In this document: piece after piece, positions 8,177-63,749 of the stretch
How positions within the stretch are numbered: position 1 is the first letter of the stretch
Layout: each line of letters starts with the position of its first letter
Notes under the pieces: generated by a model
What the model saw: the letters and a program-made list of their open reading frames with translations, nothing else
What the model was told of the DNA's origin: nothing
Database searches by the model: none
Translations under genes and position numbers: made by a program
Source of the DNA: Bispira polyomma
Taxonomy: Eukaryota
Direction: 5' to 3'
Assembly: GCA_965649765.1 (NCBI GenBank)
Contig: OZ287751.1
Location: 7,006,001-7,070,000 of the forward strand
Length of the DNA stretch: 64,000 nucleotides

Positions 8177-8339
8177 TGGTGGGCTGACGCCCGTGCGACA
8201 GCCCCCCTCAGTTCTGGTGGCAGGTCACTGGGGGGCCAATTAGGCCACCTGGGGTCACGGGGGCAAGTATAAAAGGGATTGCCGCCAACAGGCGCCATCA
8301 TTAGTTAAAAACAGTTCATAGATACAAGTGTTTTTACAA
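8177..8339 (+). repeat. Split direct repeat A2
   Basis: Copy of 2652-2814 abutting B1. Confidence 0.95.
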
Positions 8340-11464: not shown

Positions 11465-11512
11465 TCATTTGCAAATGACACCTGAAGTGGCTTTAGAACT
11501 TCTCTATAAAAG
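11465..11512 (+). promoter_or_regulatory. Putative core promoter of the SCO-spondin/mucin-like gene
   Basis: TATAAAAG at 11505-11512, about 170 bp upstream of the ATG. Perfect 14-bp palindrome TCATTTGCAAATGA at 11465-11478. Confidence 0.45.
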
Positions 11513-11680: not shown

Positions 11681-12855
11681 ATGGTGAGATCCTACCAACC
11701 TCTGTTGCCTGTTCTGCTTTATGTGGTTACAATGCAGTCCAGAACAGTAGTGAGGTATGTATGGGATGTTCATAAGAGTTCATGACAATAAACCACAATT
11801 TACTGCATAAATAATAAACTGTTGTAAACATAATTTCTACTAATTGTTTTGGAATAAAAAGGGAGCTGTAAGAAACAGCTGACAGTAAGAATTTGTGTGT
11901 AATAAAATAGCAGATAAAAAGTCTTACATAAGTTAAATAAGAGTGACATAGAAGTAGTGAAAAGGTCAGCTTGCAAGAGTGCATGCTTTAATATCTTCCG
12001 CATTATAATTTAGAATATTGTGTTGATGTTATATAGCACACGACTTTATAAGACACACTTTGGTGGTTCTATTATCAAGACACTCATTTTTTTTAACAAA
12101 TATATGACATCCGAATTAGAGTTGGTTCTGGATAGGTCAGTAACATGTAGTCATCACCATGTCAATATCTATGTTTTGAGGTTGTATCTTAGTATCTTAG
12201 AAACCTAACTTTCATCAACTCTAATTAACCTGTGGTCATATCAAGGGAAAGATCTTAAGCTCAACCCAGACTCACCTCAAGTCTAAAGCCAACATATTCT
12301 GATGAAAGTGACCCTACATAAAATCGGACTGCATATTTTGAATTCAGCACTAAAAGCTCTTGTAAAGTGAATGGAGTGACAAGTACAGGTTAATTTCATC
12401 GAGAAGAACTTTTCAGATGGCCTTTACCTAAGTTTAGCCTGTATTTCTTTTGGGGAGTATGTGCCCAGGTTTTCAAAGGCAGAGTAGAATATCTGAATTA
12501 TCCCTTCTCTTACATGATGATGACAGATATATTTGTCCACATTTTATTTTTATTCTGTAAGTCTTCTTGTTTTTTCTTCACTATAGCAGCGAGCCTCACT
12601 GGTGCACAATCACTGAATATAAGACAGACACCGAAGAAGATAGTTGTGGAAACTACTTTGAAAAATACCTTCGTCAATTTACCATTAACAGGCCAGCAAG
12701 TAATCTTGATATGTACAGTGATGCTGTTTACATGCAAATACTGACAGGGTACGCGGCTAATCCACAGCTGGCTCCACAATGTCAGTATGAGAAGCACACT
12801 AGTGAGATAGTGGACCAATGCTGTGATGGCTGGAAAGGCTCAAACTGTAATGAAG
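11681..12855 (+). CDS. Exons 1-2: signal peptide and EMI-like domain
   Basis: Exon 11681-11754 (phase 2 donor AG|GTATG) joins exon 12587-12855 in frame, giving SEPHWCT...[11 protein letters not shown]. Confidence 0.75.
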
Positions 12856-15800
12856 GTGAGTTAGTATTTTGTTGTATGCCTAGAGATTTTCCCATTAAAA
12901 AGGTGTATTCTATTTTTTAAAGAGTGAACAGTTATTTATGTGAATGAAAGGAAACCGCAAAAAGAATGGATTTCCTAAAAGCATCTAACATATTTCAATG
13001 AAGAGTAAAATATTATATGAAATCATAAAATAAGTCCTAGCAGTTCTTATTAACCTTAAAAATAGGTTTTATAGCAATAAGATAATTTCACAAAACTAGA
13101 ATGTAGTTTAATATTGTCTGAACATTAACTATCTGTTGGTGTATTTTATGCAGTGTATGGTCCTTGCTTTGTATGGTTCTCTTTTGAGGCCCCGTATGTT
13201 TTATGACCACCATCCGTCCCCCATTTTTGATGTTTTGATTAATGCTTAGGTTAGTTGCGCTTTAGAATTTGTTGTACAAAGATTAAGACTAGATTGTTGA
13301 TGTTCACTGTTTTCACTACACCAAATGTACTTTCAAACAAGTTAACACCAACATGGATCTTTACCTATAGATATATGAGGAGGGCTGTTTCAAGATGTTT
13401 CACAAAGTGTTGATTATTACACACTATGTTACGTACCCCACTCTAGTACTACGGTACAGGGGCCGTTGTATAAAGTTAGGTGTATTTTTACATTTTATAA
13501 CTCAAGAAGACAAAATTCTCACAAAACTAACAGGCTTGTTTTGTAACATTTTGTTCTCTTGAGTTCTATAATTTAACCATACACATTAATCATACTATAA
13601 CTGTATTCATTCTCATCCATCTAGCTGACTGTACACCTGATTGTCAGCATGGAACCTGTCTAGGTGGAAACAAGTGTGAATGTTTTTCGGGGCATGTTGG
13701 TAGCCGTTGCCAGTATGACTTAGCCAGTAAGTACAGAGTCTTGCTTACTAGTCATTCACAACTAGAACAATAAGCATCAGATATGTAAAGGCGAAAGTTA
13801 ATAGTAATCTTTTAGTATCAAATTAGAATGGAAGTCATCAATCAATGGTAGGTCTAAATTTGTTTCCAAAAAAAAAAGTATATTAATGAGGTAATAACCT
13901 TATATTGTAACTTATCAAGTGTCTTTGTCCACTTCTAAATTGTTCTCTGTGTTGCTGGTTTCACAGTTTTGTTAGACTGCCTTTGCTATTTCTAAACGTT
14001 CACATTTTTATGTTCTTTATAAAGTATGATTTTGATGTACATTACAACTGGAACCTCAAGGGAGTCAGAAAATACCTCTACTCAAGCAGGATATTCATTT
14101 AACAGGGTAGATTTCAATTGAAAAGGCCCTTATGGTACAAAATATATTTTTTCCTGTATAGAATTGATTTTACAGAGTTCTGCTTAAGGGTTATGACTTA
14201 AAAAACTTGTAAATAAATGGGTTTAATATTAATGTAAATACTAGGAGTTACAGACAACAGGAAGTACTGTTTCAAAGACAAACACTGCAGTGGCAGTCAG
14301 GTTGATGGTGCCACAGAGTTGGTCACACAGACTGAATGTTGTGCAATGGAAGGTGCTGCTGCTTGGGGAGTGGTTACTTCAGAAGAGTATGGTGTGGATT
14401 GTACAATGTGTCCAGGGGCAAATGGTTTAAATGCTGACAGTAATCCATCAGGTACCCTCATTTAAATATTTTATAAAAATAGCTATAAGCCATCTAGACA
14501 ATAAGCAAATTGTATGCAAAATACCCTCACAGAGGGTAAGTAAGTAAAGCAACAAGCTATTTTTAAAACTGTTGTCTTGGTTTACAAATACATCTCTACA
14601 GGTCAACAAAATATGTCAGTCCTTTTCTGTCTCAATAGACTTCAGCTGCTACAACTAGGCATAATTATGCAGTATACTTAGTATACTCTAATGTTCCATA
14701 TGATGTTACATCAATGCATAACCCCAATGTTCACTTTAAAACAAGTTTCTTATATGGTCTCACCCAAGTTGTGGAACGACCTTCCTTACAGTATATGTAG
14801 TGTTTCTACTCTAAGAAGTTTTAAATGCAGACTTAAAACATATAAGTTTGGCCACCATTTCCCTCCCCCCACCCTTAGTTTTCCGGCACCAATCACTGGT
14901 TGTATTTTTGGTGTTGACCAATCTCTGCTTTTAAATGTTGTAATGTGGTTTCTGATTTGCACCGTATGTCACAGACTGCTTTAGTACAGAGATTAAGAAC
15001 TTGGCTACACGATTGATTGATTGTAATTCTATCGTGTTGTTAACAAAAAGGACATACATTTAACAAAAATAATAAGACTGGCCCTCTTTGAGAGTAGTTT
15101 TATATCATCTGTTCTAATACCTAACTAAAGGCATTCTTTATAACTTTGTTATTACATATGGTACAGCTTGAAAATGAATATATGATTTCAGTGGTTATCA
15201 ATGAGTCTCCATTGGATATGAGGACCTGCTTTGGATATGGTCAATATTACTATCGTACATTTGATGGACTGCAGTACATGTTCCCTGGCAAATGCTCCTA
15301 TCTTTTGTATACTGATGGAATGAAGTCTGTCAGAGTAGAAATGATTGATTGTTTTAACTATGCTAACTGCACAAAGGTACACACTATCACTATGTTCTAA
15401 TCAAATATGTTTTTAATTTACATTGTGAGATTTCTTTTAAAACAAGTTATTCAATGGTTATTCACTCATGACTTTAGATCAATGTAGATTAAATTATCAC
15501 TTTTTAGTGATTTAGACAAAACTAATATGTTTTAACAACACCAATTTAACCATGGCATTTTTTATTTCAGTAGATATAAGTTTTCTGAAGTACTTCAGTT
15601 TATGTTATAGATAAGACCATTATTTTAGACTCCTGGAAATTTATATAATTTTAAGTTCCTCCACTTTTTGCAGAGATTGACAATTAAGCTGAACATTGAT
15701 ACCACTGTGGTAGCACATGGTGCCGACATCCAGGTTGGAGAGGAAACCGCTACTGTGACAATGAGTAATGGTTATGCACATCCCGATACTGGAGCTCAGA

Positions 15801-18800
15801 TCAGTTTACGTGGAGAATTCTACTATCTGGAATATGGAGCCTTCAGGGTCAAATGGGATGCTACAAATGTTTGGGAAATCACACTGAGTACCAACTTGCA
15901 GGGCTTTGAAATAAAGGGTTTATGTGGCAACTTTGATGGAAATCCAAACAGTGAGTTAAAATACTAATTGTCTAGCATTTAAAGTTACCTCCATATAGAA
16001 GTCAAGTCATTCACTTGTTCTAATATAATAGTATAGTAATCTTACTCTCTGATGATGATTTTGCAGGCAGTTGTTAGCAGTTTACTTTTTAAGTGTAAAC
16101 GTTTAGAAAGATATTGCATTGCTGTAAAAGTTTTATAGGGTTTATGGGTGGGGTGGGGGCGGATTTGTAGCTTATCCCAGATGTCTTATTTGCACACAAT
16201 GTAATAATTGTAGCCCAAACTAATACTTGCTCTGTCTGTATACAAAATGTTATTTGTATTTAGATGATATGAGGAAACCCAATAGTGTTGATGAAATTAA
16301 GAATCCGGCTGCTTTTGGCAATGCTTGGTCTATTACAGACTTTAACATGGTAAGATGCCTTCTATAAAATTGTAGTATTGTTACTGAAAGCTAGTTAAAT
16401 GTATGTTATAGTGTCATGATGTAATATTTTGTATGTTTTTTAATAGAAAGTCAGCAGAAATAGTTTTATACGATGTTTAAAGGAAACCCCAGCACACAGG
16501 CTGTTGATCCTCTTTATCCCAAGTGGTATATTCACACAATTACATTATTAATAGCTATAATATCTGAATCCACAAATGAGGCATGATTTAGGCTTTTCAG
16601 TCATCATGGGCTGCTATTTTTGGTAGTGATGAAAAGCTCAGGAGACAATATATATGAAAAAATAAAATCAGTATTTCTTTCTACACTTAGGCTTTATTAT
16701 ACAAATATAAGCATCTTTCTTAGAAACAATTTCCATTTTGGACTTCTGTTACTGTGATACTGTACAGCCACCATCACAACTAAGTCAGAATCACAGCCAA
16801 AAGTTTCACTAATCATTTTAATATGTTTATACAATTCTTGTTTCTCAAATCAATGCTATTGCAATGTGTTTTCAGTGTCCAGATTCCGGCAGTTTTGTGT
16901 ACCAGTGTAAAACTCCGACCATAGAACAAGAAGCTATAATGGCCTGTAGCATAATTAAATCTCAGTTGTTTAAGGAGTGCCATTTGCATGTAAGTAGATT
17001 TCATAAAAGCTGTGAGTTTAGATTTTAGATTTACATGTTGAGTATTTTGTTCAAAGAATACCAATAATCTGTAGATTCAAACACAGTTTCATCTGTTACA
17101 GGCCTACAAAAGGCAGAAACGCTTGTTACACCATAAATTATTTTATGTTTTTTTTGATTGTTCTCATTCCTTTAATTTTATTGGCCATCCTTACTTCTAA
17201 AGTTAAATATTTTTTGTAAGAATAAAGAATTCTGTTCGTTAGCAAATATGTAATAAATTAAATTGTGCTTCATTGTATGGTTATAAATATACATTATAAT
17301 GGATGATATACATTTCAGATTCCAGTGAGTAGTTATTTCTATCGCTGTGTGAATGACTACTGTGGTGCGATTAATAATAAGGATAACAATCCTGATGCAG
17401 CTGAAGATGTCACAAGCCAAGAGTTGGAAGATGCACGTTGTTCAAATCTCAATGCATACAGTAGAGAATGTAGTGCTCACGATTTTATTGTAAACTGGAG
17501 AACTTCTACCCTCTGTCGTGAGTTGTATTCAGTTAGATTTTTCAAGCCCACAAAAAAATAATGCCATAAAGGTTGTAGAAATTTATGTCACTTTGCATGC
17601 ACAAAAACAAAGACTACTCAAAGTGTATTCATATTTTCATTGGGGGGAGGGTCTATAAAGCCCATTTTATGTTATGAATCTTCATTTATTCGTCAAAAAT
17701 ATTCTTAACCTATTAAAACTTTTAGATATGTATCAGTAATTGGTCAATTCAGTCAACTGAAAGAGGTATTTGATAATAGAATGGAATACTGAGAATACTA
17801 ATGGGCCTGGCACTTAATAAGTCTGCTGCAGAACCCCCGAGGTCATATTTGAGTCCATTTCCTCTAGTGGTATCAGTTCATTCACTTTTATCAAGTTAAA
17901 GCAATTTTAAAGCTATGATTATCTGTGTCATATTATATAGAATATTATCAAGAAAGTACAATGACTATACCACATACTTTAGTGTTTCATATTTGATTAT
18001 ACACTTGACCATTTAAAGATAATTTTGTGTTTATTTAACAGTTTACAATTGAACCTCCTTATCTACATATAGCCTCAATGAATGTTATTCTATTTCTATA
18101 GCTAAGGATTGTGAAGCAGACACTGGCATGCTGTATTCTGAGTGTGCTCCAAAGTGTGCCCGTACTTGTACCACTTTGTACAATACTATGCCAGCTGATT
18201 GTCACCAGTGTAACCCAGGATGTAGTTGTCCCGAGGGCCTGTTTCTACATGATGGTAAATGCGTCCAGGCACGGCACTGTCCTTGTTATTATGTAGATCG
18301 TTACCTAGATCCAGGCACTACCATCAAGGATAATTGTAACAACTGGTATGTTTATAGTTTCTTAATTCAAGTGTTTTACACAAAAACCTTCAATAACCAC
18401 CATTTTATACAACTAGTTCTTTTGTTATCACTAACACTATGACACTGTATGATAGATGCTCCATTATATTTTAGGACAAGCAGTAGTTACTAACATGTTG
18501 CAATAAATATTTCAACTCAGACTATGACACCTTAAAAAGACTATTGTAAAACCATCTCTCCCTGGGTATTTATTATTTTGCAATTATGTTATCAAATAAT
18601 AGCAGTTTGAAATCTTTAACTGGTTGTGTGAATTATTTTCAAGAAAGAACCATCAATAGAGTAGAACCACATGCTTATATGCTTCGGTTTGTATTACAGG
18701 TTTGACAATACCAAATTATTTGTGTACGGTTGAACCACCAATAACCATTATCCCCCACAAGAAAGTTGTTGATAAAAATATCCAATATGGAAAAAATATC

Positions 18801-19375
18801 GCGTATAGAATGATCAGTTTCATATATTCTGTGTACCTAGTAAAAAATCCTAACTATGTGGTTGTTAATAATAATATTTATTGGTTTAGTTGTTTTAATA
18901 ATTCACCATAATTTATTTCCTATGTTCAATACTTCGTTCACAATGGGGTTCTTGTTTTCCTAACTAGCACATGTGTGACTGGAAGGTGGAAATGTACTGA
19001 TGAGGTTTGTTCAAAAACCTGTTCTTTGCTGGGTTTCCAACATATCAATACCTTTGATGGACAGCAATATGATAATAATGGCCGTCCTTGCACAGGTGAA
19101 AAACCTGATTCTGGATACACATTGGTTGAGGTAAGAGGGGTTATTGTGCTTATTATTATTTATTTAATTTTTTGTCATCTCCTTATAACATGTATACAAT
19201 ATTTGTGTAATAATACTGCCAACAAAGTGGCATATATTAAACCAGCCAGCAAGTTTTGAACTAAGATACATTAAGGATATAAATTACAAATTTCTATTTA
19301 AAAGTCAGTGTATGATATTTTATACTAACAAGCTTATATATAAACACTAATGTATGATATTTTATACTAAAAAGC

Positions 19376-19417
<42 letters not shown>

Positions 19418-22400
19418 CCACTTTTTCTATTATCTAGTACTTAACATTAATATTTTCTTTAATACTTAGGAGTTGTTGTTACAAATATTTTTATATCATT
19501 ATTTTTATTATCATTTTTATATCATTAGTCATATAATTTAATTTTTATATCACCTTATTACAGTCAGATAATTTGCCAGGCTTGGGAAAACTGAAGATTG
19601 TTTACCAAAACACTGGTGATACTAAATCTGTAATAAGTGTGACCGTCATTCTGATGCGACCAAACACTGAAGACGCAGTAGTTACTTTGACAAAAGATTA
19701 CACTGCTGTAATATATGGTACACCAAGGAATGATTTAACACAGGTAAGAATATGTTTTATACCAAGATCAGGTGATTTATTTACTTAACCACCAAAACCC
19801 CTTGGTGCCAGTAAGCTGTAAGCAATGTTAACAGAACTTAAATACTTGTTCCGGAGATTGTTTTTCTGTCCCTGTGGCATAATGAGTAACATGCTAAGAA
19901 AAATCGAGTAGCTTGGCTGATCACTTGAAATGGCTGTGACGTGTCATAGGATTCTATCCTCAGTGGCTAAATAATCTTTGGGATGTTGATAAAGGATCTG
20001 TCTTCTCTGAGTGGAATCTCAGTTACTGATGATGGTTGACTGTACTTGGGTAGTCAACAAAATGTAAATTGGCCGTTTGAATACCGGATAAAGGTGGAGA
20101 AATGTGCTCAGTATAAATTCAAATACAAGACAACAATTTGCGCAACCTGTAAAATCACTGGAAAGCTTGATCAGTAAAAACGTATGTGTCCATTAAATAC
20201 AGAAAAAATAAAACAGTTCTAGCAGTTAAGGAGACTTGCTCACTTCATATTTCTACTAATATTGTAACTATTGCGACAACATTTTTTTAATAGAATGTGC
20301 GAATAATCTAAAAAATAGTATTAAATAGACACATTAGAAACATTTTATAGATACTTATTTTCTTATTATTACTAATTTTCAGAATCCATTCAGAGACAGC
20401 ACATTCTATGTGAAAAGAGTTGCCCAACTATTTTTGATGGTTGAAGGCTTTGGGTTTAGGTTACTATATGATCCCACTGGGAGGATTTATATCACATTAG
20501 AGCCTTACTACATGAAGAGGGTAAGTTTAAAATTCAGTAGAACTTATATTATCCGAATATTCCATTTTATGAACTTGTTTTCGTTCTCCCCAATGTTTTT
20601 CTACAGTTTTATACTAAACTGTCTTCAATTTATGAGCCTTCTATTATCGAAAGGAAATCTGACTCGAATAACAGAGATTACACTACATATATTGTATCCC
20701 TTTTCTGTTAGAGTGTAAATGTGTTTAAATAAGTTAGATTTGTTTTAACAATATATAGTGCAATGTGTTTGAACAAGTATTACATAATAGGCAGTAAGCC
20801 TTGCCAAAAATATTGATATGTTATTGCTGTGTTATGAAAGGTATATGGTCTTTGTGGTACCATGGATGGCAACTGCCATACAGATTTCTTTGCTGGAGGC
20901 ATTCTACAGACCGACTTGGTGACCTTCCTTAATGCTTACAAATCTCTAAAATGTGAACCTACCGAATCTATAGATGCCAACTATAAACCATGTGACCTGG
21001 TTATGGAGGTGAGGACAATTCAAATTACTCTATAATGCTTCTCAGTAATGCTTACTTGTAGAACTATGTTGACTAAGTATAACTGTTTGACTAAGCTAAG
21101 TATAACATATATAAAACTGCTTCATTAGGCGTTGCTTATATTTGTGAGAAACTGTGATCCATGATTGAGTCGGTTAATATTCGATTTGCTACTAAGAAAA
21201 CAACTAAAAAGAGCTTTAGTATTGTATTGTATCCTTTTAATAAAGGTGGAAGAGCTAGCAGAAGAAACATGTGGCATATTCAAGGACAGGAGTATTTTCG
21301 GATGCTGTGTAGATGTGGTAGAATACCAGGATTATATTGACTGGTGTATATATGACATATGTGCCTCCAGAGGTGTTACCACAGAGCATGTATGCTTAAT
21401 GGCTACTGCCTTTATCCATGAATGTAAAACAAAAATCGACATTGCAGATGAGAAGTTCCTCAGCTACTTTAACTATGAATGTGCAAGTATGTAGTTGTAT
21501 GCTACAAGTATGCTACGAATTGCTTTTTAGCTTTTAAGTTTAGCCAAATCATACACATACATATTATTAAATATTAGAATATCTTGTACTCAGCATTGAA
21601 TTTCATTTTATGGTGCTCCCTTTAACCAATGCGAGGTTACCTCTGATCCATAATTGATTTAACCGAATTGTTTATCTTACACATACAAAAATAAAGACTT
21701 TGCAGGCCTTATAACTCCCCTAGAATTTCTATAGTTTAAGGGTATTCCTATGTTTCCTATATTTCTTGTAGATCATGGTCAAAGATTTCTATCTATAATT
21801 CCTGTAATTATACTGTATTTGTTGTGAGACTTGAATAGCACGTTAAATATATCAATAAAGTAAATAAATAATTTTGTTTATTGGGTCACTTCGACTGATT
21901 ACTGATCAGTTTCATAATTAATTCATTCATTCATTAAATATGCAAGTATAAGTAGCAGAAGAGGTTTTTTTAATGTTCAAAACTTTTACAGAAGTATATG
22001 AATAAATGTAGTCCACTTTTCTTCGATATCAATGAACAAGTTCCTATAATTATTCAATATTTTCTGTGATTATAATTCCTCTATAGTTATTCTATATTAT
22101 ATGCTTAAAATTGCTATGATTCTTTTCCTCCAATAATTATAACTAGACCTAAAGTAGTTGCCATGGATATGTTTCATTTTCTTTCTGCTATTCACAGCAC
22201 TTGAGAGGTATCAATGCGAGGGGGGCAGTGCATTTACCACAGGTGCCAAGGTCTATGAAGCATGTAGAGATCAGGAGGATGCTGAGCACCACCCTGAGGA
22301 GGAGACATTGGAAGGTTGTGGCTGTAGTAACAACCACTTGACAGATGGGGAGGGAAGTTGTGTACCAGTGGAAGAGTGTACATGCTTGGATGCTTATGCA

Positions 22401-52400: not shown

Positions 52401-55400
52401 CTTTGCAGCTGAAATTTTTTAATCACAGGGGAAAGTTTGATTGTAATATGTATTTTTGAAAGAATACTACTTACCAATTTCTAACATGCAAATTGTCCTC
52501 CTTCCTTTGCCTATAGAGTGGTGTCAAAATTTAAACAGAATATGATTGGTTGGGGACTAGGTCAGATAGACTAGGTGAGATACTCTGCTGAGTCACATTT
52601 TTGGTCAAGGTTGATAGTAGTTGTTTTTTTAACCTGTTGTTAACTTTTGATTCAAGCTTGTGCAAATGTTGAGTACACCTTACCTAATGTAATCATATAG
52701 AAGCATTAAGTAGGGGTTATATATTTGTCATTAACTGGTCTATATCCTCACAATGCGTGCATTTTGTTTTATTTCCAGTGGATACCACCCTCCTCAAACC
52801 AATACAAGTGTATATTACATATTGACATGCTAGAAGCTGAGGTGTATGAAGTAGTATTTGTCCTGGATGTGCCTGACATCAGTGAGGATGTTTCTGTGAG
52901 AGATGTCAACATTACTGGATGCATTTCTGAAGGTGTATTTTTATACAAAGTTATAATGTTTATGTTTTTATTTCTATAGCGCCACAATCGATGACCAGGC
53001 ATCCTCTGTGGCGCATATCCTAATAAGTGTGCAAAAGGATAGTCTGGTAGACAGAAAAAGGTTCGTGATTAGAGTTCAGTCGTGACCAGCAGATGAAAGC
53101 TATGATGAGAAAGCGAGCTGATACAGATGTGTTTTGACATTTTTTCTGAAAGACTTTTATCATTAGGATAGTCTTTAACTTTTCAATCTTGTGGTGTATT
53201 TTGTGTGTGCATATATGACAACTAATATCACAGTTCAGATACTGCTCTTTAGGGTACGAATTGTTTGTGTGGATCATAATTAGATTTATTATCATGGTCT
53301 TCCATGGCGAGGTAGTTAGGGAGTTGGTCTGGTGATCGGATCTTCCCTAGTTCACCTCGCACTTTTGCACCTATGTTTGTGGGTGGATAAACATCATTGG
53401 GAAAGTTGTGAACTCACCATTGCCCACTATTGATGACCCAGACTATGTTATATGACCTCTTTTTGGGGGAATAAGTCCCTTAGAGGATGGCACATTAATC
53501 AAGCACTATATAAATGCTCAATACTCATAATATTGCAGATTTATTTGTGTACTAATATTTCAATTCTATTTGTTTTTTTTACATTGAAGAAACCACTACA
53601 GAAACTACTTCTACTGTAGTACCAACAACAACTACCAGTGAGTTGAATTGTGTTTGCACAAATACATCAAGATACTTAAGATACAATAGAAACTCTATTT
53701 GATGAACAATTTCGGAGAGCAAAATTCTGTTAGCATAATAGAAGGTTCATAAAATAGGAGAGGCTTTTTATAATATGAACAATGGGAAATATGAATTTGG
53801 GAGAGTGAACATGTTCATAAAATCAAGTATATGGATAAAAAAAATAGAAGTTCTGATAATAGAGTTTCTGGTTCACTAGCACAACTTTAATACTTGTATT
53901 TTATAAATACTTGTACTTTAGAAGGGAACATTTCATGTGGGTATTACTGTCACCACTCTTTTTTTTCTATTGGGCTTCAATTTGTGTTGATTTTTTTAGA
54001 AGTAAAAATTATCAAGACTGACTATATCACATTACAAATAGTAGAACTAGTGATTATTTATATTATACTGAATACACATGCATGTCCTACAGAATGGCAT
54101 TATAGAATCTGTAGAACGAAAGGGAAAATGTAAATAGTATTTAGATATCTTCAGTCACACGGTAAAGAAAGCATATATTTTGATATCCACTTTCATTAGC
54201 TTTAACTGTTAAATACAACTAAGTGATGTAATGGTAACACACTTCCCTCTAACCTCATCAGCCGTGTGTTCGAATATTGGCCATGACTTATAAATGGTAA
54301 AGTTGGCAGAAGACTTGCTAAAGGCTAGCTGTTGGCAGAGCAGAGCACCTTGTGACAAACTACAATGTTCTGATTTTCTCCACCAGTGAACTTGATGATA
54401 TGAAACAAAATGTGTTGTAAGCAATGTAATGAATTGAATGTGATCTACACCATGTACATCTGTAATCCTGCATACTTTCTTTAATTAAACTGCATTTGAC
54501 ATGCGTTTTTTTTATTTAAAAACATTTCTACACATGAGATGAACTTTGTGTTTTAGGTGAAAGTCCATGTGTTTACTTGACTGGAAATCTGCTGGACAGC
54601 AATGTGTTGGGTCAGAGCTTTAGTCTCCGTGCATCCAGTAACGATGAAAAGACTGCCAAGGCATTGAAGGGCAGTGGGTCAGCGTGGAAAGCTTATAAAT
54701 CAGATGTAACAGACGGTGTGGTGACCTATACCTTTGAACTCGACTCTCCTGGTCAGTTGATGTACTTCCAGGCCACAGCCTACGGTGTGGAATCGATGAA
54801 ATTCAAAGTAAAACTTGCCGGAACTGCAGAATTCAAGCTATTTAGAAGTAGCATATTCTCAGATGGGGTGAGTTAAATACTGTTTCCATACACCCGTACA
54901 CGGCATCCGTAAACCTGTCCATCAAAGAGGCATGATGTTTCTATAACTGTGTATATATAGGTTTTAAGGCATAACTTTCTTTTTTATGGTCTGCTGTTTA
55001 AAATTCATTTACCTTTTTGTTCAGTGTCTCAGATCTTGACACCAAATAACCAAACTTATGTTACACAGTAGACCGAATAATCTGTCCCAATTTAGCAAGA
55101 TTCCTTGCTGATATTTTGACGACTGAATCACGAATAAGGCTTCGGCTACCATAAGCCACGCATTGTAAATCAAAATCAGCATATATAGAGATAGAATCTG
55201 GTTAAAATAAATATATACCCTCATTCCTTATATATGATGCCTACGTGGTACATATCAATTAATATAATATAAAAACTAAACCACAAACATTGGCACAACT
55301 CTGTCGGCCATGTTACGTCAGGCTAAATTTACAACGTTTTGCTTATGGTAGCCGCTCTGTTGCCAATCGGCTATACCTCAGTTTAAAATGCTGTCATCAG

Positions 55401-58400
55401 CAGCAGAATACTTGGTTACTCTAGTTACACAGCAGTACATATTTCTTGAAACTTCCACTGTTTGTATGGATAAAATTTCCCTTCTGGAGGTGTGTTTTGC
55501 GGAACTGTATGACTTACACAGATGTATATGGGAACACCCTAAAGGAAAATAGAACTGTTGATGTGTACATGTGATGCATGTATGAATAGCTTTTACGCCT
55601 GTATGAAAACCGGGCATTAGACTGCATCTTTTGTCTCGTGGTATTCACTACAAATGTTAAAATTTATTAAAACACATATCGAAGAAAATTGCACCCTCAT
55701 TCGCAATCATGGTATCTACTGACAAGGTTTCGATAATCTGAATTATAAATTCATTTTTACAATACTTGTTATTTAACAACATAGAAATAATATGAACTGT
55801 TTTACTTATATTTGGTTTGTTTATCCCACTAATTTGGCTTAGACTTCTTCAATGTATGGTGGATTTATAATATAATACCCAATAAAAGTATATTTATATC
55901 AGCCCAAATTCAGGAATACTTATAAACTAGATAAAAACACAAGATGTGGATTGAAATGGCCAGTTTTTTCAACTGACAAAAACTGTATATATTAAACCAA
56001 GCATACAATATCTTATCATTATTTGGAGATTTATGCAAAATTTTATTGATACATATACATGTATCAAACCAATAAAAACATGGACTTATTGGTAATTTCA
56101 TTTGTGCATATACAGCATTAAGGCTTCAGGAAAGACAGTAGACTCAATAAAGATAAGTATACATACACAGTTATAGTCAGGATCTCTGGAAAAGTTGTGT
56201 AGGTTTATATTAAAATATCTATAATTAGATATCTTCGGTGTTTGCATTACGTAAAATAATGTTCCATTTCTAGGTGAATCTTAAACAAAATGACAGTTAC
56301 AGTGACGTGTTGGAAATACCCAGAGTGCAGCTCAATACTGGAGATATAGTAACAGCAGTCAAGATTATAATGGAACCTATCAACCCAGAACAAGTTGATG
56401 TTTCATTGGACAATCTCTCTGTATATGCATGCTTCAATGGTATGCTTGACACTATTTGATATTTCAGTGTTACACTATACAAATAAACTACAAATTTTGT
56501 GTTATTGAATAATATATTTATATACACATGTGGAGAATGTTATAAACATATTTTAAGGCCTCACAATGTTCCAATAATTTTCAGCCTTCTTATAATTTCC
56601 CCACATTTTTGTCAAAACTTCCTTTTTATTTTTCTGAAAATATGTTGCCGTATAGCAAAAGTGAGTAATTGGGCGATATATAGCTAAAGTAAGGTGTCTT
56701 GTAAATCTCAGCGTACAATTTCAAAACAATGACTGCCTATATGTACACATATTCTAGCTATACATTCTGGCTATTTTGTTGAGATACTTCAGTAATTAGT
56801 GCTAAGGTTTTTCAGTTATTATGACCAAGCCTGTGTCACATGATAACTACTTCTACAAGTAATGCAGTGCAATGTTGCTTTTTATTACTACCCAAATTCC
56901 AATATGTTTCCACCATTGAGGTTGCCTGTATTTCTCCAATATTTTATGACATTCCAATTGGCCCCTTTCAATCCCTATAAGTTGCTGGCAAGCAGTCGAC
57001 CCCCTGAAAATATTCGCAATAGGATTTTGTTAGTAGTACAGCCAAAATGTTTTGTTAAAAAAATTATACGTGAGGCCATTATTGTATGCCAGAGGTAGTC
57101 TGTGGTGTGTGTTTTAGTGACTCCAACTATCTGTAATTTATTATTAAAACATTTTCTTCAGCTCCCAGTTCAGATAGTTTTCTCTAAAAAACAAACAGAA
57201 TTTTAGGCACTAAGTGGACAAAACACATCTATATCAGCTCGCTTTCCCACTTTAACATTCATCTGCTGGTCATGACTGAACTCTGATCACGAACCTTTTT
57301 CCGTCTACCGGACTATCCTCTTGCACACTGATTAGCATATGCACCACAGAGGATGCCTGGTCATATAAAAGTAAAAAAATTTACATTAACTTTTTCTTAC
57401 TTTTCAGGAAGTCTGCCCAGCACATCAACTGCCACAAGTAGGTCATCTTACCACAATTGTGCTATTACATAATAACATCATTCAATACAATGTTTCCAAA
57501 TGCTGTTTTTCAAAGGGGATGGGGTTTCTTCTGTAAAAGCCTATGTGTGACCCTACAAAAATACACAAAACCAAAATTGTTTGAATATCATGCAGAATTA
57601 ATTCTTAGTAATGGTTTGAAATACTTAAATGCAGATGTGTAATGCTTTAGACCTTAGATTATCCTATCTGGCCACAATTGTATTACTAACTGTATTTTAT
57701 TTTAAAAAAAAGATATTAAACTGCTCAAAGTGACATGAAACCCCAATAAACTTGTGATACCCAAGCATAAATGATTTTATTGATAGTAAAACCTTGCATA
57801 GAGTTGTGTAACTCAACTGGAACTCCTATTAGTAGACTCAAACCTTTGATTCCTTGAATAAATACATACCATCAATGATCAAGAAAATATAGACTGTAAA
57901 ATTTGTTTTCATTAAATAAGTAAATCTAAATGAACAATTATGGAATGGGAATTATGAATCTGTTTAAGTGATACTTTATCAAATAAGAAAGTGGAACTGT
58001 TTACAGTTATCCTTAAACAGAACTCTGTTATGTTAGAGTAATTAGCATTTGTACTTGGCCTTATTTTTAGAGATTGTTTGACAAATATTGGTTTTCCATT
58101 TTAGCACCTTCCTATCCATGTGATGGAGATTTACTAGAATTGGACTATAACACTCCCAACAAAGACGAAAAATTTGAAACCCGAGTAGTTGACGAGGCAG
58201 GGAGAGATGGGTCTTTCTTACGTGGCTCTAATGCACAATACACTGCAAACTCAGATCTACTTACGGTGAAAATGGATTTAGTTGGCGACAACATTTTTAG
58301 TATGGCTGGATATCGTTTTGTTGTTATAGGTGTCCAAAATATAACAATTGTGATAACCACTCCAGATAACGTGAGCACCGCCCTCACACCAGACCAGGTT

Positions 58401-61400
58401 AGTATTTGTGAGAAGTTTCGGGGTTTTTTTGTGTCTTCCAAATGAATATATGTTTGTACTTAATGAATATATTGATAACATTTTGTACTAATATAACCCC
58501 ATAATACACACCATTTACATCTATTCATCACGCTTGGTAATTTAACCAGGAAAAGAAGTTTGAGAAAAAAAGAACGAAAATAAGCCTAAGTTTTTGCCAA
58601 GTCAAACACTTTTTGTGGATACCACCCCTGCTTATATAACCAGTTATATATACCCTTTTTCTGTAATAAAGGCCCCCTCCTTTAACATCCCCCCCTTCTA
58701 TAAAAAGAAGGAAAAGTGAAAAAATGTTAAAATAGTGAGTTATATTTTAAAATTGCAATTTGTACGATAATGCAGATCACCATGACATGTAAATTACTTA
58801 CAGTGACCTGCGGTCAAGCATCCAGGTATTTTGTGGCTCAATATATTACATTCCCACATATCAATAATGTTTTTTGTTGTAGTGTCAAATTGTGCTAATT
58901 TATGCACGTATATAAATCATTAATCACTAGTAACAGACTTTCTAAAATGGCCTGGGAGAAAAGAAATACTGTTTTTAAGAATAGCCCCCCGTTTTGGGAA
59001 AAAGCCCTGGCGATGTTTATCTGCAGAATTGACAGCATATAGCTTTATGTCTTTCTTGCTTAAAGGATAGCTCTGTCCTGGATAACCCTGGCAGACCACT
59101 TTTGGTTGCTTCACCGGCGGATCCAACTAATGCTGTCGACATCAAGTCTCTATCTATTGTGCTCACTAAACACAATGATGTAGAGAATGTCACCATTAAA
59201 GATCTGGTATTATTTACATGTGAACACCAGACCACAACACCAAGCCTAACAACTACTACCCCAGGTAAGTGTTACTGTCACTACAGACTGACGATAAAAT
59301 ACAGGCCCCAGTTTCACAAAGCCCTACTAAAATTAGGATATAGTATCCTACTAAATCCTAAGTTAGTAGGGCAATAGTAGGTGATTTAGTATAATACTAA
59401 AGTGTTTCACTAAAGCTCTACTAGTGATGTACTAAATCACTGAGATAGTAGAGCTACTAAAGTTAGAAGGATACTATTTGCCTTGGAAACAAAGTCACAT
59501 GACCTTTTACACAACAGCAACAATGGCTGAATTTGATGGTCAACTTTGTCCACCTGAAAAAAAGAAAAGGCCAAGGGGCAAGAATTACACAAGTCAGGAG
59601 TTAGAATGTTTAGTGGTTGAGGTAGAAAAGAATAACAAGATTTTACAAAGCAAATTTTCGGACACCATCACTAATGCTAAAAAGCAAAACCTTTGGAAAA
59701 CTATTGCTAGAGCTGTAAGTTCTGTCAGTTCTGTGTCACAAAGTAAGATATATCCACTCAAAATTACTACACTGTGAAAAACCTTTAATTTTTGTACAAA
59801 ATATGTAAATTTCATATACACACTGAAGCATACGACATTTTACACATTTCTCTACTAAATTTAGAAGACCTAAGTTGGTATCCTAAATTTAGTAGAGAAG
59901 TTAGTAGAATTATTTTGATAAGATGCCTTTGTGAAACACAAAAGTTAGTAGTGTCTTATACTTAGTATCCTACTAAATATTTAGTATCCTACTAACTATT
60001 TAGTATTCCACTAAATATTTAGTAGCGAAATTAGAATAACCTACTAAATATTTAGTATCCTACTATCTTAGTGAAACAGATAGTAGGATGTTAGTAGGCT
60101 ACTAGTATTTAGTAGCATACTAAGTAGATAGTAGGGCTTTGTGAAACTGGGGCCAGAAATACTAATGTCTTCACACAATGTCTTCACACAATGACAGTAT
60201 ATGGAGAGGCAATAAGAGATGGTTTTAAAAGCCATGATCCCTATCTGTAACTTCCCCTAAGTTTAACTTCATTTCCAAACCTTCTGCAGTCGCCCATATC
60301 AGGCGGAAGTTTTGGGTAGGGTATTTCCGCAGCACTACTGTATGTCCGTCATAGTAATAATGTTTTTCTGCCGTAACTCTTCTGTGCCAGTAATTGTTTG
60401 TTTCTGTCTGTAAAACTTATCTGAACATGTATCAGGGGTATATTTCCCCCAGATGAAACAGCTGATTTAACAGGTGGCAAGGCAAGTTACAAGACCTTCT
60501 GGTACTGCCCATCATACCCCCACTATGTGAAAGGGTCATAATATGTCAACTGGGTTTCAACAGTTTGAGAAACCTAGTTTACAAAATAATGGAGGTGCAG
60601 ATATTGCAAGTGCTTTAAATACTCAACTATCAATCTTTGACTGTTATGTTATATATAAGATTTTCTAGAATGTTATACAAATACATCATTTTTTGCCTTG
60701 ATTAATCTCTCATAGGTAATTGTGCCACAAAAAAGTCAACAGTTATAATTATGGGGGATATTGAAAGTAAATTTATACACATACACCTGTAGTATGTACA
60801 TATGAGTTATACCACTTAAAACACCACACATAATCACCTATATAATCAACCGAACAGGCATTTTCATATTTTCTTTGTTAGATAATTTTTTAGCTATACA
60901 TCCCACACTAGTAGTATTGTTAAAGGCCATTTCAACACTGGAGCCATATCGAAATGGGACAATGTCAACACCAAAAAATTAAGTTAACTCATCGTGGATT
61001 GAAAAATTAATCCTCAGCTAGTATTGGAAATGTTGTTAACAATCTGACCTGAGAAATTTTAACATAACTCCAGAACGTATATTTGGGTGTTTAAACGGGC
61101 CCCTCAAAATCGGGTGCTATTTTAAAATCACCCCTGATGTCAAAACGGCATATTACTACTATTACTACACTATCATGCAGTACATTTAATTTGATATTTT
61201 TAGATTACAAGTTATGTTATACTTTTCTTACAGGTGTATGTGAACCAACGGAAAATGAAATAACCCTGAAGGATCTCAGGTTAATAAAGAAGCAAAACCA
61301 AGACAATAGTGGATCTGAAAACAGTGTAATAACTGACAAGGAAGTGAGTGCTTCTCTGGGTTCTAGAACCCTTGGGCTGTTCTCAATATTACACTATTTT

Positions 61401-63424
61401 ATTCTATTCCTTAGTGGTATGTTTAATATCTGGGGCCGTATTCACAAACATTCTTTGCATAAAATTCTTAGATTTTTCTTAGTTTCAGCCAATCAGATAT
61501 GCTTTGAAACAATACTTTTTCAACTAGTCAAATTAGTTGTGAATATTAGTCCTGTACTAGTGGATTCCAAGGTGCAACAAAACAACTGGGATTCTTCATT
61601 GTGTAGATAAAATCCCTATCCTTGACATGATGGGATTGGTAAGGCTGGCTTAGGGAAAGGCTCTGCTAAATAGTAATTTTTTAACCATCTGCGGAAGGAT
61701 GATATAGAATAAGTAGTATGCATATCATGAGACAGATCATTAACAGTTAAATTCTTACATATTCTTTCTTTCAATATTGTTTACACAATTTAGTTGGCTA
61801 AACAAATATAGGATTGCTTCCCTTTGCTGGTCATTAGAACTTTAGATCGTTTAGGCAGTGGCAGCAATTATGGCAGTGAAATGTTAAAATAAATGAACAA
61901 ATCTATAATACATTGTATAATTTATATAATGATCAATGTTCTTTTTTTATATTTAATCTAGGTGTGGATGGGAAATGATGATCAATTAATCATCAAATCA
62001 GCAGGCTCAAAGTCATTCAGAGTTACAGCTCTTGCTTTAGAACTTGTGAAAGTTGTCAACTTCACTGTGACATATAAACCACTAGGAGATACTCACAAGG
62101 TATGTTATTTTTTTACATAAGTAGATACCAAAAAATGGCTGAGAAAAAAATAGCTAAGATTCTAGATCATATAGCAAACTTTTGAAGTTACTACAGGAAC
62201 AAACATATTTTAAACGATTACAAAGGTAATGCATATGTATTTTCATTAACTTTAGTATTAGTCAAAGATGACAAACTAATAATGAGAACAAAATGTAGTG
62301 TCTGAAACAAGCATAAATCTTTGTTGGCATTTGTGTAACTCACATAATTTAATTATTTCTGTGAATCTTGTTATTGCAGATTCTAGTCAATGACACAAAA
62401 AGGACACATGTTCATGTACCGGTCGAAATGAACATAGAAATAGAAAAAATTAGGTTCCAATTTTACTCCACCAGCGGAGAACAAAAAGTGAAGAATATTC
62501 AGCTAAAAGGGTGCATAGAAGCACAATCTACTACAACATCTACAACACCTGCTCCCACAACTACATCTACAACACCTACTCCTACCACAACATCTACAAC
62601 ACCTGCTCCTACCACATCTACAACACCTGCTCCAACCACAGCATCTACAACACCTGCCCCAACCACAACATCTACAACACCTGCCCCAACCACAACATCT
62701 ACAACACCTGCCCCAACAACTACATCTACAACACCTGCCACAACCACTACATCTACAACACCTGCGCCAACCACTACATCTACAACACTTGCCCCAACAA
62801 CCACACCCACAACACCTGCCCCAACCACAACATCTACCACACCTGCCCCAACAACTACATCTACAACACCTGCACCAACAACTACATTGACAACACCTGC
62901 ACCAACAACTACATCGACAACACCTGCACCAACAACTACATCGATAACACCTGCACCAACAACTACATCTACAACACCTGCCCCAACAACTACATCTACA
63001 ACACCTGCCCCAACCACAACATCTACCACACCTGCCCCAACCACTACATCTACCACACCTGCACCAACAACTACATCGACAACCCCTGCTCCAACTACTA
63101 CATCTACAACATCTGCCCCAACCACTACATCTACAACACCTGCCCCAACCACAACATCTACAACACCTGCTCCAACCACAACATCTACAACCCCTGCCCC
63201 AACAACAACATCTACAAGCCCTGCCCTAACAACAACATCTACAACACCTGCCCCAACCACAACATCCACAACACCGGCTCCAACCACAACATCTACAACA
63301 CCTGCTCCAACCACAACATCTACAACCCCTGCCCCAACAACAACATCTACAACCCCTGCTCTAACCACAACATCTACAACACCTACCCCAACCACAACAT
63401 CTACAATAGCAGTTTCAACAACAA
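11681..63424 (+). CDS. Giant secreted SCO-spondin-like / gel-forming-mucin-like glycoprotein (multi-exon, ~67 exons, 3' end beyond window)
   Basis: Chain of exons with compatible phases (GT-AG, one GC-AG), from ATG 11681 ([20 protein letters not shown], signal-peptide-like) to an open donor at 63424/63425. Domains: EMI, EGF, TB-like, 3x VWD-C8-TIL, 4x LDLRa, then PTS linkers and a repeated 2-Cys domain. Confidence 0.9.
13625..14451 (+). CDS. Exons: EGF-like domain (13625-13726) and TB/8-Cys-like domain (14245-14451)
   Basis: [27 protein letters not shown], then YCFKDKHC...[16 protein letters not shown]...CTMCP. Both are phase 1-1 exons and both are missed by the ORF track. Confidence 0.8.
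14560..15020 (+). mobile_element. Degenerate 3' fragment of an L2/CR1-clade LINE
   Basis: Remnant peptides FKTVVLVYK and SPKLWNDLP...[13 protein letters not shown], typical of L2/CR1 ORF2 C-termini, followed by a (GATT)n-like tail. Confidence 0.65.
15192..18345 (+). CDS. VWD1-C8-TIL-E assembly
   Basis: Exons 15192-15376 ([15 protein letters not shown]), 15674-15950 ([10 protein letters not shown]), 16264-16349 (FGNAW), 16876-16989, 17319-17517 (C8; YSREC...NWRTSTLC) and 18102-18345 (TIL). Confidence 0.92.
18968..24932 (+). CDS. VWD2-C8-TIL-E plus D'-like TIL-E
   Basis: Exons 18968-19130 (HINTFDG), 19564-19743, 20383-20520, 20841-21008 (YGLCGTMDG), 21246-21486 (C8), 22198-22456, 24228-24429 and 24838-24932. 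Confidence 0.9.
19378..19414. repeat. (TA)n microsatellite
   Basis: Uninterrupted TA run in an intron. Confidence 0.9.
20535..20685. mobile_element. Degenerate Tc1/pogo-type MITE
   Basis: CAGTAGAAC..TATTATCCGAA ... TCGAATAACAGAG..CACTA ends. Related copies at ~41340-41513 and ~53683-53870. Confidence 0.5.
23217..23865. mobile_element. Solo LTR (probably Ty3/Gypsy), 649 bp
   Basis: TGTGACGA...TCGCCACA termini with a 4-bp TSD ATAT (23213-23216 and 23866-23869). GC-richer than the flanking intron. Confidence 0.85.
25358..28690 (+). CDS. VWD3-C8-TIL-E assembly
   Basis: Exons 25358-25634 ([14 protein letters not shown]...[10 protein letters not shown]), 26227-26368, 26886-27219 (DGLCGNFDD), 27497-27606 ([15 protein letters not shown]...WRSKRFC), 27933-28077 and 28592-28690. 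Confidence 0.93.
25880..26130 (+). mobile_element. Degenerate L2/CR1-like LINE 3' fragment
   Basis: Remnants [11 protein letters not shown] and FRKHL resembling the 14560-15020 fragment. Confidence 0.4.
29093..30452 (+). CDS. Four LDL-receptor class A repeats
   Basis: Exons 29093-29253, 29636-29752, 29992-30120 and 30336-30452, each ending CD..xDC.D.(S/R)DE..C. Confidence 0.93.
31233..37824 (+). CDS. Repeated 2-Cys domain copies 1-4 with PTS linkers
   Basis: X1 31233-31477+31908-32070 (WC...VRAC); X2 in 32225-32841+33107-33272 (VEAC); PTS 33983-34090; X3 34609-34904+35203-35356 (VQSC); PTS 35994-36047; X4 36819-36949+37347-37499+37668-37824 (VVTC). Confidence 0.8.
32225..32560 (+). repeat. 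Coding minisatellite, ~27-bp unit encoding TTSTTPSPT (mucin PTS)
   Basis: Tandem ACAACAAGY-ACAACACCATCCCCT units. The same unit recurs at 38073-38207 and ~43620-43735. Confidence 0.92.
34120..34225 (-). mobile_element. Truncated inverted copy of SINE family 2
   Basis: TCATATCACGACAGGCAGTT..GGCAGAGGAAA..GGTCAA resembles the reverse complement of the 3' half of 40290-40547. Confidence 0.45.
36600..36778 (+). mobile_element. SINE family 1 copy
   Basis: TAGTTAGGGAGTTGATCT...GGTTCATTGGTAGGATAACATCCTTTGGCAAGATGTGAAC...GACGACCCAGG with an (AAT)n tail. Confidence 0.6.
38073..45134 (+). CDS. Repeated 2-Cys domain copies 5-8 with PTS linkers
   Basis: PTS 38073-38207; X5 38521-38819+39117-39273 (VAAC); linker 40591-40671; X6 41056-41330+41619-41775 (LAAC); X7 42148-42422+42758-42914 (VAIC); X8 43598-44010+44574-44751 (VEAC); PTS 45042-45134. 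Confidence 0.8.
39968..40208. mobile_element. Degenerate Harbinger-type MITE related to 1000-1699
   Basis: CAGGGACTGTATTCACAAAAG left end, CTTAG/CTAAG arrays, CTTTTGTAAGTACG right end. Confidence 0.5.
40290..40547 (+). mobile_element. tRNA-derived SINE (family 2)
   Basis: GGCCGCGGTGGCCTAGTGGTTAG (A box), GATTTCGAATCCC (B box), a non-tRNA body and a (CAAATT)n tail. Confidence 0.8.
45151..46432 (-). mobile_element. Relic of a second YR (DIRS/Ngaro-like) retroelement, gag-like 5' part
   Basis: Minus-strand ORF 46066-45830 begins [17 protein letters not shown], the same CxxCxxxHxxPVGxxC motif as the gag at 2885. The insert is bounded by (TA)n on both sides. Confidence 0.55.
46471..57437 (+). 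CDS. Repeated 2-Cys domain copies 9-12 with short PTS exons
   Basis: X9 46471-46763+47418-47589 (LLAC); 48310-48360; X10 49238-49515+50242-50401 (VKAC); 51254-51289; X11 52029-52312+52779-52932 (ITGC); 53590-53637; X12 54557-54867+56274-56439 (VYAC); 57408-57437. Confidence 0.8.
48480..48860 (+). mobile_element. Degenerate L2-like LINE 3' fragment
   Basis: Remnants GAFAVAAP and [10 protein letters not shown]. Confidence 0.55.
49538..49745 (+). mobile_element. SINE family 1 copy
   Basis: ATAGCCTAGTGGTTAGGGAG (A box)...TTGGCAAGATGTGA...TGATGATGACCCAGG. Confidence 0.6.
50451..50804. mobile_element. TIR MITE flanked by TA
   Basis: GGGGATGCCGTTTTGACACC ... GGTGTCAAAATGCCCACCCC imperfect inverted repeats with TA on both sides. 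Confidence 0.65.
51430..51905. mobile_element. Two SINE fragments in inverted orientation (Deu/Nin-domain-like)
   Basis: CTCCATCCAGGTGTATAAATGGGTACC...GAGAGTGAACAACTGGTTGA on + (~51795-51905), with a reverse-complement-like copy at ~51430-51560. Confidence 0.55.
52991..53136 (+). repeat. Dispersed ~146-bp repeat, inverted partner at 57219-57364
   Basis: ATGACCAGGCATCCTCTGTGG...AAAAAGGTTCGTGAT.AGAGTTCAGTC.TGACCAGCAGATGAA...GAAAGCGAGCTGATA.AGATGTGTTTTG. Confidence 0.85.
53300..53520 (+). mobile_element. SINE family 1 copy
   Basis: GTAGTTAGGGAGTTGGTCTGGTGATC...TGATGACCCAGACTATG...GGAGAATAAG-like body shared with 920-1877. Confidence 0.6.
57219..57364 (-). repeat. Inverted copy of 52991-53136
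   Basis: CAAAACACATCT...CCACAGAGGATGCCTGGTCAT is the reverse complement of the 52991 copy with scattered mismatches. Confidence 0.85.
58105..63424 (+). CDS. Repeated 2-Cys domain copies 13-14 and a long PTS exon
   Basis: X13 58105-58397+59066-59264 (LFTC); X14 61234-61343+61962-62099+62380-~62515 (LKGC), then ~300 aa of PTS to the donor ACAA|GTAAGT at 63424. Confidence 0.82.
59305..60153 (+). mobile_element. Internally deleted PIF/Harbinger transposon
   Basis: TIRs GCCCCAGTTTCACAAAGCCCTACTA / TAGTAGGGCTTTGTGAAACTGGGGC, CAG TSD (59302-59304, 60154-60156), subterminal CTACTA/TAGTAG arrays and an internal Myb/SANT ORF. Confidence 0.88.
59523..59777 (+). pseudogene. Truncated Myb/SANT-like (NAIF1/MSANTD-type) DNA-binding ORF of Harbinger
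   Basis: MAEF...[56 protein letters not shown]. Truncated before the third helix. Confidence 0.8.
61430..61554. mobile_element. Small Harbinger-type MITE
   Basis: CTGGGGCCGTATTCACAAA left end (same TIR as 1000-1699) and a degenerate GTTGTGAATATTAGTCCTG right end. Confidence 0.55.
62525..63424 (+). repeat. Coding minisatellite, 27-bp unit encoding TTSTTPAPT (~32 units)
   Basis: Tandem ACMACATCTACAACACCTGCNCCAACM units in frame with X14. Confidence 0.95.
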
Positions 63425-63749
63425 GTAAGTTAAATCATATTTTTTCAACTGTTGCCTTCACTCCTGTGAACATTCTTGTTACAATATTGTCCACAGTCTC
63501 TATAAGTATGAGCTTGATAGGTTAGCCCATCTTTACCTAATTTGATCCATGCATATTCATACGTCTTTAGTAATGTTTCAAATGTTTGCCAGATTCTATT
63601 AGTTCCAGTTTTTTACAATAATAATGAAGCAGTGTTATTGTTTTGAGCAAACCTAATGGCATCATCTAGGCATAAATAAAGTCATTTTGTAGTAAAATTT
63701 AACCATGAATCTTTTTTCTTTTAATTGGGTTACTTGAGATAAAAGCAAT

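Follow-up and report, generated by a model that had tools for sequence, protein, structure and literature searches.

Invertebrate mucin-like proteins and SCO-spondin are already known to be linked in evolution: some invertebrate gel-forming mucins are closest to SCO-spondin, and F5/8C (discoidin) domains typically occur in the mucin-like proteins of lophotrochozoans (Lang et al. 2016, PMC4948705). In the same paper, the label text of Fig. S4 includes an Aplysia protein with three LDLRa repeats. The lengthening of the TSP1 series and the invertebrate orthologues of SCO-spondin have been reviewed (PMC8261243), radial cells in the nerve cord of Owenia contain SCO-spondin mRNA (PMC5543218), and an SCO-spondin of a rotifer has been predicted to be part of a polymer that is secreted (PMC12154537). 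The limpet protein P-vulgata_3 was found in pedal mucus and is expressed in the pedal glands (Kang et al. 2020, PMC7333891). MUC2 filaments assemble at low pH through the D1-D2-D'-D3 head; the Cys1130Ala mutant of MUC2 gives a mix of monomers and dimers and still forms filaments, as does the double mutant (PMC7599080). Here, we analyzed a 64,000-nucleotide stretch of contig OZ287751.1 from Bispira polyomma (the window), in which a gene on the + strand starts at 11681 and encodes an SCO-spondin-type head followed by globular domains and proline/threonine/serine-rich (PTS) linkers.

We read this gene as an SCO-spondin orthologue in which the F5/8C-plus-PTS segment has been expanded and whose product would belong to a mucus or a fiber, and we assign this reading as a whole a probability of about 0.6. 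The gene model comprises 67 exons on the + strand, from the ATG at 11681 to 63424 (13,066 nucleotides, 4355 amino acids, 0 stops), with a median intron of 518 nucleotides. The exon assembly that an earlier note on this DNA had proposed was carried out within the window, with all 67 exons joined without a stop. The model is a prediction whose splice sites were chosen manually so that the frame stays open, and its continuous frame is thus not an independent proof. All 66 introns have an AG acceptor, and the donors are GT in 65 cases and GC in one, which belongs to exon 42 (39273-39275). The encoded parts follow each other in the order signal peptide, EMI, EGF, TB-like module, D1-D2-D'-D3, four LDLRa repeats and 14 globular domains between Thr-rich linkers. 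The module borders are all in phase 1, and introns 25-66 are in phase 1 (26 introns) or phase 0 (16 introns) only. DNA contigs from three runs span 19500-32200 (30/30 bins covered), and a single contig piece, seen in runs X1 and X3, joins LDLRa3/4 to the first globular domain (G1), so that this adjacency is not a misassembly. The gene is real and apparently intact. As exon 67 terminates at a phase-1 GT donor, it extends past the window and its 3' end is open.

The earlier note had placed an EMI domain, three VWD-C8-TIL assemblies and LDLRa repeats in the N-terminal half, and all of these are present on the + strand (Table 1). Its parts list was complete for what it named, but an EGF-like domain and a six-Cys TB-like module had to be added between EMI and VWD1. 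The Pfam scan, which covered the 28 head exons, gave VWD pieces in 3/3 assemblies, three C8, four TIL (two above the curated cut-off) and four LDLRa (all above it), and no match to EMI. The EMI domain of exon 2 was recognized with a profile of 12 deuterostome SCO-spondin N-termini, which gave 16.3 bits compared to 9.8 bits for the best of 400 shuffles. Exon 4 scored 12.0 bits with a profile of the post-EMI segment from 10 vertebrate SCO-spondins (best shuffle, 7.5 bits), which argues that the TB-like module is common to vertebrate SCO-spondin. A six-Cys TB-like module after EMI was also seen in vertebrate SCO-spondin N-termini (P0076, P0242, P0245), and the SCO-spondin domain list in the accessible text of PMC8487547 does not include it.

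All three VWD domains carry GLCG without a preceding cysteine. With regard to the two MUC2-type inter-chain cysteines of D3 (Cys1088 and Cys1130), the CxCxC of the first site is kept in C8-3, where it aligned to vWF 1091-1126 and to MUC2, while the TIL3 insertion with the second cysteine is missing. This insertion was present in 3/3 vertebrate mucin rows and missing in 10/10 rows of the SCO-spondin clade; we take the extra TIL3 cysteine of mucins to be MUC2 Cys1130, a residue mapping that is in part assumed. In the E' module (24838-25400), TIL' and E' together contain 11 cysteines compared to 16 in TIL1 and E1, a cysteine pair apparently having been lost together, which suggests selection on a folded protein.

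The view in the earlier note that the head follows SCO-spondin agrees with both the sequence searches and the trees. A phmmer search with one D3 exon returned 621 matches. When the best 150 of these were rescored with the whole D3, Mya arenaria XP_052794204.1 came first (351 bits), followed by two unnamed proteins and by echinoderm SCO-spondin-like proteins, and a second search contributed an SCO-spondin-like protein of the chiton Liolophura sinensis. In a blastp comparison of the head with 273 proteins, the top 22 rows were all SCO-spondin-type and LDLRa-bearing (578-1026 bits), led by the chiton protein with 37% over 1642 amino acids, and the first row that was not SCO-spondin, a hemichordate mucin, reached 493 bits. 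Two trees of 33 hand-picked rows each were built, the first from the 153 of 269 matches spanning D1-D3 and the second on D2-D3 with some partial rows added. Both trees, which take up the VWD phylogeny suggested in the earlier note, place the gene within a mollusc-containing clade (Shimodaira-Hasegawa-like approximate likelihood-ratio test, SH-aLRT, 100; 100/100). This clade forms one side of a branch together with echinoderm and vertebrate SCO-spondin (99; 93/94) and is separated from the hemolectins, the CysD mucins of invertebrates and the MUC5-type mucins. The trees contain no verified vWF, nor any named SCO-spondin from an annelid or a brachiopod. In the second tree, two rows with VWA bear the label vWF; they have a mucin-type TIL3 and are not verified vWF, so that the root of this tree is arbitrary. 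A hemolectin or hemocytin would be expected to group with its own kind by its head and to have no LDLRa block, whereas the hemolectins form a separate clade and LDLRa repeats are present here. From these sequence comparisons, SCO-spondin orthology of the gene appears highly probable. By its place in the trees, the sequence would be called spiralian and probably molluscan.

Downstream of LDLRa4, the model contains 14 globular domains (G1-G14) of 130-157 amino acids (~145), each with a cysteine at both ends and all but one (13/14) bearing N-glycosylation sequons. They have diverged strongly from each other, with a median pairwise identity of 15% and a highest value of 38% (G2 compared to G8). 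The PTS segments alternating with globular domains that the earlier note described are indeed there, but PTS is the minor component: the linkers account for 717 of the 2744 post-LDLRa residues (26%), with only two tracts above 100 amino acids, and the middle consists mostly of globular domains. The protein combines the three VWD-C8-TIL units and the PTS by which Lang et al. define a gel-forming mucin (PMC4948705). One 27-nucleotide PTS unit occurs in three separate exons (32229-32565, 38075-38204 and 43626-43727) whose flanking domains are at most 38% identical, which may point to conversion or to linker DNA having been copied recently. A CysD identity of the globular domains was ruled out, with 0 WxxW in the model and a probability (P) of ~0.1% for the CysD profile. 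In agreement with the earlier note, no TSP1 was found in the window: the model contains 0 WxxWxxC, and seven relaxed W-motif matches in the six frames of the window all lie outside a TSP1 cysteine context. Since the 3' end is open and starfish TSP1 starts near residue 3820, a lack of TSP1 cannot be claimed for the whole protein, and the part of the gene past the window may encode TSP1.

The globular domains are probably highly diverged, degenerate F5/8C modules, a sugar-binding type of domain, and this assignment reaches them via their chiton copies. In a first profile comparison, the window domains matched the chiton and Mya domains with a P of 91.6% and a score of 42, compared to 16 for the best of 25 column shuffles. 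In a second comparison, the chiton and Mya domains matched F5/8C with a P of 91.6% over 127 columns (score of 44 compared to 17), while a CysD control gave 0.1%. All six tested subsets of window domains matched the mollusc profile (P 20-84%). The top match of the chiton copy in the ESM Atlas was an F5/8C cluster (0.96). The fold predicted for this copy, with seven window half-domains as the sole alignment, gave Factor V as its top Foldseek row (a weak match) and a VIA list in which CBM32, DOC and discoidin domains are frequent. Three results weigh against the reading given above. When window domains and F5/8C were compared directly by profile, P was at most 2.6%; the window half-domains had no direct match to F5/8C, Pfam, PDB sequences or the Atlas; and the support of 93 for the SCO-spondin branch is below the tool's mark of 95. 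The lack of direct matches, together with the median identity of only 15% among the 14 domains, would also be compatible with an unrelated, undescribed beta-sandwich family that does not derive from discoidin. However, the two-step profile chain, the Atlas match, the fold lists, the domain size, the terminal cysteine pair and the position agree on discoidin, which makes such a family very unlikely.

The earlier note had regarded the architecture as a graft of an SCO-spondin head onto a mucin body. This part of it is not supported, as starfish SCO-spondin and the chiton and Mya proteins already have a comparable middle. PTS and F5/8C follow LDLRa in the starfish, and a similar middle is present in the chiton and in Mya, which argues for the expansion of an existing slot rather than for a graft; an expansion of SCO-spondin's own F5/8C slot is the simplest account. 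A true chimera, in which recombination joined the head of an SCO-spondin to a body of F5/8C and PTS from a mucin gene of the hemolectin or CysD type, would have been permitted by the all-phase-1 module borders and could have drawn on the F5/8C domains of lophotrochozoan mucin-like proteins (PMC4948705). It is scarcely probable given that F5/8C after LDLRa already exists in starfish and vertebrate SCO-spondin, that the first globular domain of the chiton protein is interspersed with LDLRa repeats, and that the window domains give no CysD signal. If the locus were split in two, a head-only gene of the SCO-spondin type would stop just after LDLRa4 and a mucin-like gene would follow downstream; head-only records do exist (limpet P-vulgata_3, 1604 amino acids with a stop; scallop, 1434; crinoid, 1547). 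Read-through past the exon 28 donor meets a stop at once and this donor is weak (rank 52/67), so that a head-only isoform is possible. Even so, intron 28 is 780 nucleotides long and matches in phase 1, and the exon 29 acceptor ranks 4/66 and scores above all 1862 intronic AG. The three ATG-started peptides of at least 15 amino acids in intron 28 are only weakly hydrophobic (at most 1.9, compared to 2.8 for exon 1) and provide no convincing second signal peptide, the chiton and Mya models join the same parts, and one DNA contig bridges LDLRa3/4 and G1 in X1 and X3. Two genes are therefore most improbable, and we consider the locus to be very probably one.

The gene could also be a complete SCO-spondin, with TSP1, VWC and a cystine-knot tail beyond the window, a lineage-specifically lengthened middle and a product that forms a Reissner-like substance of neural (radial-glia-like or neuroepithelial) origin. 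The starfish protein, with its ~1,700 amino acids of PTS ahead of TSP1 from residue 3819, the open 3' end of the gene and the Owenia mRNA in nerve-cord radial cells (PMC5543218) are compatible with this possibility. It appears unlikely, as none of the four named molluscan relatives has a Pfam TSP1 match, although all four may be truncated models, and as the limpet relative is produced in the glands of the foot (PMC7333891). The proposal of the earlier note that the protein is a mucus, adhesive or fiber-forming candidate is plausible, a TSP1-less SCO-spondin head being part of the adhesive mucus of the limpet (PMC7333891). We slightly favor a gland-secreted mucus, adhesive or thread, that is, an epithelial mucus or fiber role, as the most likely product.

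In the reading that we prefer, an SCO-spondin orthologue with an expanded middle, the post-LDLRa F5/8C-plus-PTS segment would have been enlarged through duplication of exons to at least 14 discoidin-like beads with Thr-rich segments between them. As the signal peptide is plausible and the most hydrophobic 19 residues outside exon 1 sit inside G4, the protein is read as secreted. By analogy with its family, the signal peptide would direct it to secretory granules and the linkers would be O-glycosylated. At low pH and with Ca2+, the D1-D2-D'-D3 heads may then form filaments by self-assembly, like those of MUC2. Since TIL3 is devoid of the second cysteine and MUC2 Cys1130Ala still forms filaments, the filaments are expected to assemble with no more than one inter-chain bond of the mucin type. 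Finally, the LDLRa repeats and the discoidin-like beads could bind reversibly to lipoproteins, glycans, surfaces or one another, the beads occupying the slot that CysD fills in MUC2/5.

Table 1 Features of the gene in the window (positions are those of the 64,000-nucleotide stretch)
Feature	Position	Strand	Evidence or remark
TATA-box-like TATAAAA, 176 nucleotides 5' of the ATG	11505..11511	+	Sequence only, putative
Exon 1, probable signal peptide	11681..11754	+	Hydrophobic core peak 2.8 (9-residue Kyte-Doolittle, KD); aligns with chiton N-terminus
Exon 2, six-Cys EMI domain	12587..12855	+	Custom SCO-spondin EMI profile
Exon 3, EGF-like domain	13625..13726	+	Pfam EGF families E 4e-4 to 0.02, below cut-off
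Exon 4, six-Cys TB-like module	14245..14451	+	Pfam TB E 0.004, below cut-off
Exons 5-10, D1 assembly (VWD-C8-TIL-E)	15192..18345	+	Pfam VWD, C8, TIL above cut-off
Exons 11-16, D2 assembly	18968..22456	+	Pfam C8 above cut-off; VWD pieces and TIL below
Exons 17-18, D' (TIL'-E')	24228..24932	+	Pfam TIL E 0.0013
Exons 19-24, D3 assembly	25358..28690	+	GDPH in VWD3; CxCxC in C8-3; TIL3 without mucin-type extra-Cys insertion
Exons 25-28, end of E3 and four LDLRa	29093..30452	+	Ldl_recept_a 33-39 bits each, cut-off 24.1
G1, discoidin-like (exons 29-30)	31233..32070	+	P 55% to mollusc-domain profile
PTS tract of ~115 amino acids, 27-nucleotide tandem unit	32225..32565	+	
G2-G9 (exons 31-52) with short Thr-rich linker exons	32566..47589	+	G2/G8 38% identical; G5-G7 related
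Linkers and G10-G13 (exons 53-64)	48310..59264	+	G10-G12 retain Trp aligning with chiton copy
G14 (exons 65-67)	61234..62523	+	
PTS tract of ~300 amino acids, 32.5 copies of 27-nucleotide unit	62524..63424	+	Stops at phase-1 donor

Several further observations were made within and around the gene. For exons 22-23 (27497-28077), contigs of runs X2 and X3 contain a second version in which six letters differ and intron 22 is different; by hand, three of the changes were found to be synonymous and the cysteines are all unchanged. This version represents a divergent allele or a paralogue. The end of the window (63748-64000) is a 98% copy of 56398-56652, which comprises the 3' end of exon 61 and adjoining intron, and could reflect a local duplication of the G12 region running past the window or an assembly artefact. 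Upstream of the gene lies a tyrosine-recombinase retrotransposon (2644-9504) with reverse transcriptase and RNase H-like matches and a weak integrase match. Its split direct repeats (2644-2814 with 8168-8339, and 7500-8176 with 8827-9504) are 99% identical, which suggests a recent insertion, and we take their layout to be of the Ngaro/PAT type. Intron 64 holds a Myb/SANT-like DNA-binding fragment (59436-59774; PF13873, E 5e-14), presumably the remnant of a Harbinger-type transposon. High-copy repeats occupy intronic positions 22892-24163, 25436-25859 and 27556-27979, where contig depth is hundreds to thousands of times that of the flanks, and 23300-23860 resembles a small element with direct terminal repeats.

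The search of the literature, which left most subscription papers outside, found no paper describing a repeated degenerate discoidin middle, and the drawings in Lang 2016 Fig. S4 and Helm 2017 Fig. S2 may show PTS after LDLRa in Aplysia or Owenia. What is likely new here is how large and how diverged the discoidin-like array is, together with its likely identification. As the general idea is already in print, the gain is incremental. In published accounts, the SCO-spondin-like proteins of invertebrates appear mostly as heads, be it with TSP1 or without it; here, the middle is set beside those of a chiton, a clam and a starfish, and is described as PTS plus discoidin-like modules that standard annotation misses. 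The gene supports the view of SCO-spondin as a mucin-type polymer, and its product is a candidate mucus, adhesive or thread protein that can be tested. The missing second mucin inter-chain cysteine, a trait common to vertebrate SCO-spondin, offers a handle on Reissner-type assembly as opposed to that of the MUC2 gel. A bolder reading, which we hold to be rather less likely than not, is that molluscs have a distinct TSP1-less SCO-spondin branch with a degenerate discoidin array invisible to Pfam (at least 14 copies here, at ~15% identity), which would serve as a diversified binding array on a mucin backbone. If this is correct, then together with the starfish protein it would make the ancestral bilaterian SCO-spondin a PTS-bearing gel-forming mucin, from which the Reissner fiber protein arose by loss of PTS and gain of TSP1, and the head of vertebrate SCO-spondin would gain a TB-like module that had been missed.

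Among the known systems, the SCO-spondin-like protein of Liolophura sinensis (P0243) and Mya arenaria XP_052794204.1 (P0089) share with this gene an EMI-EGF-TB-like head, three D assemblies, LDLRa repeats and PTS alternating with globular domains that Pfam does not recognize; both are database models and fall into the same clade as the gene. The chiton protein has four globular domains between PTS and nine LDLRa, as opposed to at least 14 and four here, and its LDLRa are interleaved with the first globular domain, whereas none are interleaved in this gene. Mya has three LDLRa, PTS, one globular domain and further PTS. Compared to both, the copies in the window are far more diverged and their linkers mostly short. 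Limpet P-vulgata_3, compared by its description only, likewise has three VWD, C8, TIL and LDLRa and no TSP1, but is reported with 1604 amino acids, five LDLRa and neither PTS nor a discoidin middle (PMC7333891).

The SCO-spondin of Acanthaster (XP_022082160.1, P0155) likewise has an EMI-type head, D1-D3, LDLRa and long PTS, with F5/8C in its middle, in the order LDLRa, ~870 amino acids of PTS, F5/8C, PTS and TSP1. Unlike the gene described here, it has a single canonical F5/8C, followed by seven TSP1, TIL and VWC, and no EGF-TB pair before VWD1. Vertebrate SCO-spondin shares with the gene EMI, the TB-like module, LDLRa, probably the F5/8C slot after LDLRa, GLCG without a preceding cysteine in the three VWD and a TIL3 without the mucin insertion. 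The chick protein contains ~13 LDLRa, 27 TSP1, one F5/8C and a cystine knot (PMC8487547), and no PTS runs were found in five full or near-full vertebrate SCO-spondin rows. Finally, MUC2/MUC5 and hemolectin have a D1-D2-D'-D3 head and PTS interrupted by small domains as well, with F5/8C in hemolectin. MUC2/MUC5 differ from the gene in having CysD domains, CGLCG, the extra TIL3 cysteine and no LDLRa. In this comparison, the gene appears as an SCO-spondin orthologue that would work like a gel-forming mucin and yet does not qualify as one of the MUC2/5 type.
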